Positions 54,596 to 56,878 are shown, numbered from the stretch's first letter. The stretch: 64,000 bases of DNA from Candidatus Thorarchaeota archaeon (GCA_048882325.1 JBHLRS010000002.1:32001-96000), one strand, 5' to 3'. Translations and numbers: made by a program. Notes: a model not told the origin generated them from the letters alone.

Positions 54596-55396
54596 TTATT
54601 GATTGAAAGCGAGTCTCTTCCTCGGATAATCAATAACTGTTTCAAATCTGTTCAGGAAATCAAATCCAAGTATTCCATGCTCAATGAGTTTCCCTTTGGG
54701 TGAAACCTTGCTTAAATCGAGAACAACAGCCGAAGTGTGAGAGATTTCTGCGTTTCCGACAGCTAGTTTTTGAACTTCTGTGAGCATTAGTTCGTAGTCT
54801 CCACCAATCCCTCGAGCTATACCCCAGCCAGGTTTCGGATCAAGGCCAATTCGGGTTGCTAACTCTGGTGTTATGACCGTGTTGCCTGCGCCTGTGTCAA
54901 GTACAAAATCAAAGGGTCCTTTGTCATTAATGTGTACTGGAACTCCAACAAGGTGTGAGTCCTTAATGAATTTGAAAGAAATCCAATTCAGCTTTCTTTC
55001 AGAGATCCCTTTATGGAGTTTGAACAGTTTCTCATTGTAATTCAAAGACATTGTACAATGTCGCAGGGTTGTGAATCCCAGAACTCCCTCACGGCCGCCA
55101 CTAGCTTTCAATAAAGCATTGACATCCAGTACATAGACTTCATCTTCATCAAACTCAAGTGACCCGACTCCAATAGTTGCATCAGCATACTTGACAGGGA
55201 TACCACCCCCAATTCCTCGAGCCTCTGATTGTGCACCTGTACGAGTAGGGATACCCAAACTCTCTGCAAGCTGGGGAGTAATAGTTGTTGTTGAAGCTCC
55301 TGTGTCAAGGTCGAATGTGAATGGTCCACGACCATTAACTGTTACCGGAACTTTTACGAGACGGGTCCCTGAATCGATCTCAACCTCAGTTTCCAT
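54596..55396 (-). CDS. Two-domain retropepsin-like aspartyl protease
   Basis: Two repeats: FDLDTGA...GVLGF and FVLDTGA...GILGFDFL. Confidence 0.88.
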   Translation of the reverse strand: METEVEIDSGTRLVKVPVTVNGRGPFTFDLDTGASTTTITPQLAESLGIPTRTGAQSEARGIGGGIPVKYADATIGVGSLEFDEDEVYVLDVNALLKASGGREGVLGFTTLRHCTMSLNYNEKLFKLHKGISERKLNWISFKFIKDSHLVGVPVHINDKGPFDFVLDTGAGNTVITPELATRIGLDPKPGWGIARGIGGDYELMLTEVQKLAVGNAEISHTSAVVLDLSKVSPKGKLIEHGILGFDFLNRFETVIDYPRKRLAFNQ

Positions 55397-55409: not shown

Positions 55410-56234
55410 TCACTCAGGTTTCGTGCCAGCTATGTAGGCACTATATGCTCCGTATATGCTAGCTCCAGCCTTGCTGTTAATCCTAGCATCTTTGAATCCA
55501 GCATCTCTCATATGTTGTAGATATTCCTCATCTAGGATTGCACCGCCAATGCATCCGGTGTATGTGATAACCTCATCACTGACTTCCTTTGGTAGAGGCT
55601 TTGAGAGTACAATATCAGACACCATAACTCGACCACCAGGCTTTAGGACTCTGTATACTTCACGAAAGACCTTACCCTTGTCTGGAGCCAAGTTGATCAC
55701 ACAGTTACTGATTACGACATCAACTAAATTGTCTTCAATGGGCATATCCTCAATGTCTCCAAATCGAAACTCAACATTAGTGATGCCAAGTTCCTCAGCA
55801 TTCTTCTTCGCCTTTTCAATCATAGCAGGTGTCATATCAACTCCAATGACCTTACCTGTGTCGCCGACTTTCTTACTGGCTACAAACATGTCGAGACCTG
55901 CACCACTCCCAAGATCAAGAACAACTTCTCCTTCTTTCAGACTTGCCAGTGCAACTGGATTTCCACATCCTGCAAAAGTTTCAACGGCGCCAGTTGGCAT
56001 ACCTTCGGTATCATATCCCAATGCTTGTGCAAGGTTCACTCTTGTGACCTTAGCCTCCTCTTGAGGTCCACAACAACTAGAGGATGTTTGAGCTTGAGGA
56101 GGACAACATCCAGCATCGTTACTACTTGGTGACTGCTCCTCCGCAGACCAGGTTCCCTCAGCTACACGAGAGTATGCATCTCGTACAGCCTTTTTGATTT
56201 CATCAGATTTCATTTCACTGACTTTCTTTGTCAT
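55410..56234 (-). CDS. arsM: Arsenite S-adenosylmethionine methyltransferase
   Basis: N-terminal CC pairs, GCGNP, VLDLGSGAGLD, GVDMT, ISNCVINL, GCIGGA. Confidence 0.92.
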   Translation of the reverse strand: MTKKVSEMKSDEIKKAVRDAYSRVAEGTWSAEEQSPSSNDAGCCPPQAQTSSSCCGPQEEAKVTRVNLAQALGYDTEGMPTGAVETFAGCGNPVALASLKEGEVVLDLGSGAGLDMFVASKKVGDTGKVIGVDMTPAMIEKAKKNAEELGITNVEFRFGDIEDMPIEDNLVDVVISNCVINLAPDKGKVFREVYRVLKPGGRVMVSDIVLSKPLPKEVSDEVITYTGCIGGAILDEEYLQHMRDAGFKDARINSKAGASIYGAYSAYIAGTKPE

Positions 56235-56371
56235 ATTACCACCAATCTGTTTGGATTCTCGTTATTGTATTCGTAACAACCACAGGATAATTGACATGAG
56301 GACTTAGACTCGGTTTTCTTTTGGGATCCACATATCGGTCGGGATTCCGCAACAACTCTGTCTTCAGTCAT
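56231..56371 (-). CDS. Unlisted 46-aa Cys-rich ORF coupled to arsM
   Basis: Hand translation MTEDRVVAESRPICGSQKKTESKSSCQLSCGCYEYNNENPNRLVVI; SD GGTGAT; ATGA overlap with the arsM start. Confidence 0.55.
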   Translation of the reverse strand: MTEDRVVAESRPICGSQKKTESKSSCQLSCGCYEYNNENPNRLVVI

Positions 56372-56385
56372 TCAATCACCTTCTA

Positions 56386-56430
56386 TATTGGGTGTCCAAT
56401 ACATGACAAAAAATATTGGGCATCCAATAT
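56386..56430. promoter_or_regulatory. Two palindromic operator-like boxes TATTGG-N4-CCAATA over the predicted arsM-operon promoter
   Basis: TATTGGgtgtCCAATA 56386-56401 and ATATTGGgcatCCAATAT 56413-56430; minus-strand AAAG-TTTATA (BRE/TATA-like) overlaps box 2. Confidence 0.75.
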
Positions 56431-56485
56431 AAACTTTGCTTTTAGAGAAAGAAGTCAGTCTGCAGGTGAGAAAGAATTTATTAGC

Positions 56486-56501
56486 TATAGGAAGTCCAAT
56501 A
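56486..56501. promoter_or_regulatory. Third box (one mismatch) between the TATA-like element and start codon of padR
   Basis: TATAGGaagtCCAATA, just downstream of GAAAGAA-TTTATTA and 5 bp before ATG 56507. Confidence 0.65.
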
Positions 56502-56506
56502 GATAT

Positions 56507-56878
56507 ATGTCCGACCTAGAGCAGACTGAGCAGTGTTGTCCTCCTGATTGTTGTGATATGAGAGGACTTCTTACATTTCAGATCCTCTGGGAACTTGACA
56601 AAGAAGAAATGAATGGGCAACAGATTGCTGAAAAGATCGCGATCAGGAGAGGAACAAAACCGACTCCAGGTACTATCTATCCTGCTCTCAAGGAACTGAA
56701 GGAGGGTGGGCTTATTATTGGACGAAAGGAGGGTAGACAGGTCATCTACCAGCTAACACCTGAGGGAGAGAAAGGTCTTGCTCAAGCGTCCAGATATTTC
56801 CTGCAAGCATTCGGGGACATCGCAGAGGATGTCAAGGTGAAGATAGTTGTGATCAAGAAGGGCGATTGTGACTGCTAG
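56507..56878 (+). CDS. PadR-family transcriptional regulator with Cys-rich termini
   Basis: MRGLL...IL, PGTIYPAL..L...G, YQLT..G; N-terminal CCPPDCC and C-terminal CDC; ATG 56507. Confidence 0.88.
   Translation: MSDLEQTEQCCPPDCCDMRGLLTFQILWELDKEEMNGQQIAEKIAIRRGTKPTPGTIYPALKELKEGGLIIGRKEGRQVIYQLTPEGEKGLAQASRYFLQAFGDIAEDVKVKIVVIKKGDCDC

Follow-up and report, generated by a model that had tools for sequence, protein, structure and literature searches.

A cysteine-tagged PadR-family protein encoded divergently from arsM is a candidate non-ArsR arsenic switch in Asgard archaea

INTRODUCTION

What is understood of how prokaryotes sense arsenic derives almost entirely from ArsR proteins of bacteria. 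Members of the ArsR/SmtB family coordinate As(III) through three cysteines, and a vicinal pair at a helix end or on a flexible arm is often among them; AfArsR (Cys95-96-102) and CgArsR (Cys15-16-55') both place such a pair at a helix end (PMC11868830). MarRars shows that a winged-helix repressor outside the ArsR family can likewise rely on a vicinal cysteine pair. The representative from Achromobacter deleyi As-55 (AdMarRars) uses Cys36, Cys37, and Cys157 and is released from DNA by As(III) or Sb(III) (bioRxiv 10.1101/2021.08.12.456183). A PadR-family protein has also been reported, namely PadRars of Azospirillum halopraeferens Au 4, a repressor of an operon for resistance to trivalent metalloids (Zhang, Wu, Tang, Chen, Rosen, Zhao 2022, Environ Microbiol 24:5139, pmid 35880613). 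That paper is cited in PMC12817078 and PMC11566425, the first of which quotes the PadRars operator as CCTTGA-N11-TCAAGG. Outside of bacteria, sediment archaea, among them the Asgard relatives of eukaryotes, are considered relevant to arsenic cycling through the arsenic methylation that they carry out (PMC10060404).

Here, we describe a locus from the genome (3.6 Mb, 44% G+C) of a Thorarchaeota-type (Asgard) archaeon, contained in a 64-kb window, by which we mean the whole stretch of 64,000 nucleotides that was analyzed. A first-pass annotation of the window had proposed that a cysteine-rich PadR protein, encoded next to the arsenite methyltransferase gene arsM and surrounded by three palindromic boxes, is an autoregulated repressor with its own As(III)-binding thiols. 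Like PadRars, the archaeal protein has a PadR fold and is encoded beside a gene of trivalent-metalloid resistance (arsM, in 76 of the best 80 of 234 loci). Going by the title of the PadRars paper and by the papers that cite it, the two differ in that PadRars is bacterial and in that the archaeal operator is TATTGG-N4-CCAATA instead of CCTTGA-N11-TCAAGG. As those sources present it, the idea of a non-ArsR arsenic repressor built on PadR has already been published for a bacterium. The archaeal family is set apart by an operator of its own, an arm of four invariant cysteines, a broad distribution among archaea, and nitroreductases in its regulon. A search of the literature on PadR together with arsM returned no paper on this archaeal protein.

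The other two systems are similarly informative. ArsR/SmtB repressors (R773 ArsR, AfArsR, CgArsR, and ArArsR) resemble what we predict for the archaeal protein in being small, dimeric, winged-helix autoregulators of ars genes, and the N-terminal Cys15-Cys16 of CgArsR is the nearest analogue of the archaeal cysteine arm. The archaeal protein differs from them in its PadR family membership, in the placement of four invariant cysteines within one short arm, and in its operator. MarRars, in turn, is a bacterial protein with a MarR fold, and the gene under its control is arsV.

RESULTS

A PadR-family gene, a small ORF, and arsM

The core of the locus consists of three genes:

56507-56878, plus strand: padR, encoding a 123-aa PadR-family winged-helix protein of the short single-domain type; predicted repressor
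55410-56234, minus strand: arsM, encoding an As(III) S-adenosylmethionine methyltransferase in a short 274-aa form; main predicted target
56231-56371, minus strand: small ORF of 46 aa, cysteine containing, between the operator region and arsM

The arsM product passed the cutoff for the arsenite methyltransferase family NF008823 in NCBIfam (309 bits versus 263), and its closest solved structures were ArsM entries (5evj and 4fr0). When aligned with 5evj, the GCGNP and SNCVINL motifs were identical, and the third catalytic cysteine was aligned as well (GCIGGA in this protein, ECLAGA in 5evj). Near the N terminus, the enzyme has vicinal cysteine pairs at residues 43 to 44 and 54 to 55 (C43-C44-P-P ... 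C54-C55). Five loci (L022, L028, L029, L033, and L045) have an extra small ORF that corresponds to the N-terminal ~55 residues of ArsM as a stand-alone protein, CC pair included; these ORFs resemble products of tandem duplication of the arsM 5' end.

The first-pass annotation had described padR as divergent from arsM. The two genes do lie on opposite strands, but they do not face each other directly since the conserved 46-aa ORF intervenes. The stop codon of this ORF overlaps the start codon of arsM (ATGA), an arrangement from which the two appear to be translationally coupled. Homologs with a SCQxSCG-like motif occurred in 18 of 29 close loci, and all but one of these 18 (n = 17) ended within 3 nt of the start of the next gene. 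The ORF was missing where the spacer in these 29 loci was only 86 to 101 bp. The 46-aa product had no match in Pfam or NCBIfam, and the small ORFs opposite two distant padR homologs (L104 and L107) had no homology to it.

Directly 3' of padR is a gene for TBP (PF00352; 56986-57591, plus strand), and directly 3' of arsM is a gene for a twin-domain aspartyl protease (two PF13650 domains; 54596-55396, minus strand). Almost every locus from the same genus has both neighbors, which makes the entire block syntenic within that genus. The TBP gene was considered as part of the padR unit and rejected, as it has its own TATA element and its distance varies in relatives.

A PadR fold with an invariant N-terminal cysteine arm

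Two clusters of cysteine codons mark padR:

56534-56554, plus strand: CCPPDCC codons (Cys10, Cys11, Cys15, and Cys16; residues 10 to 16), directly before helix 1; proposed thiol sensor arm
56867-56875, plus strand: C-terminal CDC codons (residues 121 to 123); clade-specific extra cysteine pair

Family assignment agreed with the earlier claim that the protein belongs to PadR and not to ArsR. Residues 26 to 92 matched PF03551 (PadR) at 41 bits against a cutoff of 27 (E = 1.9e-10), while scores against ArsR/SmtB models remained below threshold (29.7 bits versus 55 for NF033788; 16 versus 97 for NF007528). The AlphaFold model consisted of a winged helix-turn-helix and a C-terminal helix, both predicted with high confidence (pLDDT > 90), preceded by a low-confidence segment (residues 1 to 17, pLDDT < 50). 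Its elements were helices at residues 19 to 32, 37 to 48, 54 to 66, and 85 to 108 and strands at residues 70 to 75 and 78 to 83. The top Foldseek matches were all of the PadR type, with TA0346 and Rv3488 at ranks 1 to 3 and RosR and LmrR also among them. TA0346 from Thermoplasma (profile E = 3.7e-9) and Rv3488 from Mycobacterium tuberculosis are short single-domain PadRs, and they were the best structural and sequence matches, sharing with the archaeal protein a winged helix-turn-helix and one C-terminal dimerization helix. Alignments to both proteins start near query residues 18 to 21, leaving the cysteine arm without a counterpart in them. A score of 31 bits against a cutoff of 140 for NF053635, the family of Rv3488, means that the padR product is not a member.

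Structure prediction also returned a homodimer formed through residues 16 to 28 and 94 to 113. It scored 0.55, compared with 0.00 for the best control, a mark that in the calibration was attained by 20 of 30 homodimers and by 1 of 23 monomers with solved structures, though PadR dimers have already been solved and the pass may reflect those known structures. The three runs shared at least 88% of contacts with a partner pLDDT of at least 78, and residues 12 and 16 to 25 fell at the predicted interface. Because the predicted contacts include residues 16 to 28, the modeled cysteine arm would hang directly on an interface-forming helix.

Both cysteine motifs were found where the first-pass annotation had put them, and it had named a lack of their conservation in orthologous loci as grounds for rejecting its proposal. 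Of the two, the N-terminal arm proved to be conserved. A CC-x3-CC motif was present in all 107 homologs whose called protein includes the arm, with the exact sequence CCPPDCC in 98 of them, and the four cysteines were invariant in an alignment that included members from Hermod- and Hodarchaeota. The C-terminal pair, in contrast, was clade specific. Of 120 homologs, 80 ended in CxC, 11 ended in CxxC, and 8 had no cysteine in the last 14 residues. CxC was absent from Hermod-, Hod-, and Bathyarchaeota members and missing in L049, L050, and L055, and we therefore regard it as accessory rather than core. In the same alignment, the recognition-helix region (PGTIYPALK) was nearly invariant. An exhaustive search of cluster representatives extended the picture to the wider family, in which one cysteine (CDMRG), a pair (CCDMRG), or expanded clusters precede helix 1, and in which many members also have a cysteine in the C-terminal helix (YFC). 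The genome contains at least seven other weak PadR-like matches, and paralogs were no more than 39% identical to the padR product.

Palindromic boxes overlie both predicted promoters

The region between the small ORF and padR contains three palindromes and two TATA-like elements:

56386-56401, unstranded: box 1, TATTGGGTGTCCAATA, exact TATTGG-N4-CCAATA; predicted operator near the inferred arsM-side transcript start
56414-56429, unstranded: box 2, TATTGGGCATCCAATA, exact; predicted operator overlapping the TATA element of the small-ORF/arsM transcript
56486-56501, unstranded: box 3, TATAGGAAGTCCAATA, one mismatch; predicted autorepression operator between the padR TATA element and start
56477-56483, plus strand: TATA-like TTTATTA of padR, in a block (gagaaag..TTTATTAgc) conserved in eight orthologous regions
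56427-56433, minus strand: TATA-like TTTATAT of the small-ORF/arsM operon, read from the sequence and conserved in orthologous regions; putative promoter function

These boxes, two exact and one with a single mismatch as originally described, were the only matches with one mismatch or less in the 64-kb window. Shuffling the window gave a mean of 0.12 matches, and none of 100 shuffles reached three. Across the whole genome, there were 25 sites with one mismatch or less compared with 7 for a reversed-pattern control.

The geometry of the boxes was conserved. An alignment of eight intergenic regions had, in order, the small-ORF ATG, GGTGAT, box 1, box 2 with TTTATAT, gagaaag-TTTATTA, box 3, and the padR ATG as conserved blocks. 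Box 1 sits upstream of the small ORF's ribosome-binding site (GGTGAT), and box 2 overlaps the minus-strand TTTATAT and is conserved together with the adjoining TAAA that represents this element. Box 3 lies downstream of TTTATTA and ends 5 bp before the padR ATG. By usual archaeal promoter geometry, transcription starting ~25 nt past TTTATTA would fall on the ATG itself, and the padR mRNA is probably leaderless. The conserved blocks thus place box 3 between the TATA element and a probably leaderless start. The earlier reading of boxes 2 and 3 relative to the two promoters was therefore correct, and the positions and conservation of the boxes are what one would expect if PadR regulates its own gene along with the divergent one. 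Archaeal repressors with sites in such positions block the recruitment of TBP/TFB or RNA polymerase.

Boxes were present in all 29 close loci, and 28 of these have a box at -22 or -23 relative to the padR start codon; the two upstream boxes were either 27 to 28 bp apart or arranged as a tandem with a 14-bp offset. The same motif also occurred in the promoter of a padR homolog that is 56% identical and comes from an unrelated metagenome. A position weight matrix built from boxes of other genomes, taken within one mismatch of the consensus such that only spacer and flanks were free, preferred an RYRY spacer. Its top seven sites in the genome were two padR/arsM boxes, followed by two boxes on contig C56, one each on C21 and C50, and box 3.

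The pairing of padR with arsM is conserved

The first-pass annotation had suggested that linkage of padR and arsM be examined in related genomes, and the linkage proved to be widespread. With a criterion of E ≤ 1e-15, a single-copy padR ortholog was found in 79 of 301 sampled genomes of the phylum, concentrated in families f1 (57/76), f12 (18/19), f18, and f21. Among the 49 loci fetched from the phylum, arsM was divergent and adjacent in 45, made up of all 29 close ones and 16 of the 20 distant ones. A scan of GTDB species returned 234 padR loci. Among the best 80 of these, which include Hermodarchaeota, Bathyarchaeota, one Thermoproteota genome, and one Methanomethylicota genome, arsM was divergent and adjacent in 76, and one further locus had an arsM remnant. 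Within family f1, 55 genomes had both genes, 2 had padR only (one of which has an arsM truncated at the edge of a contig), none had arsM only, and 19 had neither; as the compared genomes are kin, all such counts overstate independence. In one genome (G203), padR and arsM were on separate contigs, and arsM retained three upstream boxes.

Beyond these relatives, a check of gene context in five distant representatives, mostly on contigs that were too short, yielded one case (P0130) in which a PadR with 51% identity and five cysteines is divergent from a small ORF and a methyltransferase with arsM-like Pfam methyltransferase matches. A tblastn search against plasmids gave only generic bacterial PadR matches with identity of 39% or less, none of which covered the N-terminal arm. 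On a Bathyarchaeota chromosome (CP070649; L250:1995-2411), only a 138-aa N-terminal remnant of arsM stands opposite the padR homolog, and by its sequence this locus appears to be a decayed copy of the padR-arsM module.

Boxes precede a nitroreductase operon and a second gene

The genome-wide motif scan that had been suggested as a check recovered arsM as a gene with boxes, but arsM was not alone. Two other transcription units share the motif:

G000 C56:8117-9326 (L068:3117-4326): nitroreductase/flavin-reductase gene pair behind two adjacent boxes
G000 C21:14611-14995 (L069:3611-3995): gene for a 116-aa protein, with one box 19 bp upstream of its ATG

On contig C56, which is outside the window, the two adjacent boxes take up the interval from TTTATATA to the start codon of a nitroreductase gene (product of 209 aa, PF00881), which is followed 19 bp on by a flavin-reductase gene (product of 175 aa, PF01613). 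The tandem boxes between TTTATATA and the ATG were kept in all 15 nitroreductase orthologs, which were found in just 15 of 78 genomes of the family. Nitroreductases recurred elsewhere in association with padR. In Hermodarchaeota, the gene is directly downstream of padR and behind its own boxes. In Hodarchaeota (f21), padR is divergent from the nitroreductase and not from arsM, whose partner is another cysteine-rich protein, of the AbrB type; it follows that arsM does not always have PadR as its regulator. The box upstream of the 116-aa gene, on contig C21 and likewise outside the window, was perfectly kept in 10 of 10 genus orthologs. Its product contains a WCDGC motif and had no family match. 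Downstream on the same strand are a DUF362 gene and, 0.9 kb beyond the 116-aa gene, a second nitroreductase-family gene. With these additional members, the range of possible signals for the regulon widens.

Other sites and genes were considered and set aside. The exact box at C50:2022 was attributed to chance, as no genus ortholog keeps it (0/21). The exact box at C16:53604 was not counted as a target because no ORF of at least 70 aa starting at an ATG ends within 2 kb; the site is probably internal to a single very long ORF. The arsenite efflux gene acr3 (C22:49678-50637, L086; TIGR00832, 294 bits, above the cutoff) stands alone and was rejected as a regulon member, having neither boxes nor an adjacent ArsR. 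The sole strong ArsR/SmtB protein of the genome (C7) adjoins a heavy-metal P-type ATPase and not ars genes.

Other cysteine-bearing proteins occur next to arsM

We classified the neighbors of arsM in the best 30 arsM loci outside the PadR-bearing Asgard lineages (L109 to L138). Among these, 19 had an AbrB/MazE-type protein, 3 had a MarR, and 1 had an ArsR. The AbrB/MazE-type proteins (92 to 114 aa) are encoded directly before arsM on the same strand; they carry a CC...GCC(K/H)VE N-terminal arm and usually a second cysteine or cysteine pair near the C terminus. Two examples are as follows:

L117:1175-1471, plus strand: AbrB/MazE-type protein next to arsM
L118:1194-1469, plus strand: AbrB/MazE-type protein next to arsM

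The protein in L117 matched the NCBIfam family NF040962, "HgcAB-associated protein HgcC" (115 bits versus a cutoff of 70), which is named for its association with the mercury-methylation genes hgcAB. The three MarR proteins bear CCC or CSC in the helix-turn-helix, and the single ArsR has a CVC motif. Cysteine-bearing MarR proteins of this kind stand beside arsM in some Asgard genomes and are unrelated to the archaeal PadR. The AbrB/MazE-type protein is a candidate regulator of the arsenic/mercury type on a third fold. That the scaffold next to arsM is swapped while cysteine pairs are kept would be expected if all of these proteins sense the substrate of the enzyme.

DISCUSSION

Computational analysis gives this archaeal protein a PadR fold, a conserved operator, a stable gene pairing, additional regulon members, and an invariant set of cysteines. 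With its invariant cysteine tag, its back-to-back arrangement with arsM, and its conserved sites, PadR is a good candidate for a non-ArsR arsenic switch. We propose that the 123-aa protein would act as a homodimeric, autoregulated repressor that binds the 16-bp palindrome TATTGG-RYRY-CCAATA. On box 3, it would cover the region from TATA to start of its own gene; on boxes 2 and 1, it would do likewise at the TATA element and start of the transcript that runs divergently through the small ORF and arsM; and on contigs C56 and C21, it would cover the promoters of the nitroreductase/flavin-reductase pair and the 116-aa gene. Bound in this way, PadR would keep TBP, TFB, and RNA polymerase off the target promoters. 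The flexible N-terminal arm would put Cys10, Cys11, Cys15, and Cys16 before helix 1 at the dimer interface, where three of the thiols could bind a trivalent metalloid such as As(III), or possibly methylarsenite or Sb(III). Binding may then put strain on helix 1 and on the dimer interface, which would release the DNA and turn arsenic methylation on. In this scheme, we infer repression as opposed to activation, the release of DNA upon ligand binding, and arsenic as the ligand, the last of these from gene context and by analogy with known cysteine-based arsenic sensors. On balance, we judge it probable, by a modest degree, that PadR is an autoregulated repressor with its cysteine arm serving as a sensor of trivalent metalloids.

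The same repressor and operator could also work with a cysteine arm that functions as a general thiol switch, in which case arsM would be one member of a thiol-stress or xenobiotic regulon responding to oxidants, electrophiles, quinones, nitroaromatics, polysulfide, or soft metals (Hg(II), Cd(II), and Cu(I)). We view this as possible, if rather unlikely. At two of the four target promoters, the genes have no established function in arsenic metabolism, which speaks against arsenic, and a regulon with a nitroreductase, a flavin reductase, and a 116-aa gene near a second nitroreductase-family gene fits a general response to thiol-reactive, electrophile, or nitroaromatic stress. Nitroreductases are typical of the YodB, QsrR, and NemR electrophile regulons, and it is a nitroreductase, not arsM, that is paired with PadR in Hodarchaeota. 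The AbrB-type protein that takes the place of PadR beside arsM belongs to a family linked to hgcAB (NF040962), which indicates that thiol sensors of this sort need not be specific to arsenic and that the context is not exclusive to it. Chemically, two vicinal pairs of cysteines would also be able to take up Hg, Cd, Cu(I), or Zn or to become disulfides. Against a general thiol switch, arsM is by far the most constant partner of padR, both among the best 80 of 234 loci and in the near-perfect co-occurrence in family f1, whereas the nitroreductase ortholog is confined to 15 of 78 family genomes. Moreover, one or two cysteines usually suffice for sensors based on disulfides or alkylation, and two invariant vicinal pairs would be more than they require.

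The cysteines might instead be structural or hold a cofactor, such as Zn or an Fe-S cluster across the dimer, while an organic effector (for example, an organoarsenical or nitroaromatic compound) would occupy a pocket at the dimer interface as in LmrR and PadR. The closest folds do include the ligand-pocket regulators LmrR and Bacillus subtilis PadR, and members of the wider family with a single cysteine (CDMRG) or none suggest that DNA binding does not need the tag. We nevertheless find this improbable given that the arm is predicted to be disordered, that vicinal CC pairs make a poor geometry for Fe-S clusters, and that the invariance of the four cysteines goes with arsM linkage across phyla. 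Least probable of all, to the point that we give it very little weight, is that some other factor binds the boxes and that PadR is simply encoded nearby. The additional PadR-like matches in the genome would offer other candidates. Yet wherever padR occurs across phyla the boxes accompany it, their distance to its start codon is fixed, the recognition-helix region is nearly invariant, and the paralogs share no more than 39% identity with it.

Returning to PadR as a metalloid-responsive repressor, the padR-arsM module offers a defined candidate regulator, operator, and regulon that are open to simple biochemistry. Its compact four-cysteine arm could serve in biosensors, and the nitroreductase pair and the 116-aa protein are new candidates for arsenic-related enzymes. 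Together with the AbrB, MarR, and ArsR neighbors of arsM, the PadR family may represent a case of several folds converging on the same thiol chemistry. A bolder and more speculative extension, which we regard as unlikely, is that archaea sense trivalent metalloids by means of a portable CC-x3-8-CC tag placed before unrelated small DNA-binding folds (PadR, AbrB/HgcC-type, MarR, and ArsR). If that were true, the nitroreductase/flavin-reductase pair and the 116-aa protein would be undescribed enzymes for the anaerobic detoxification of arsenic or organoarsenicals. As a minor observation, numerous top arsM matches from other Asgard families (G064, G088, G070, G047, G038, and others) contained one in-frame TAA or TAG; the match may run through the stop codon of an upstream AbrB-type gene.
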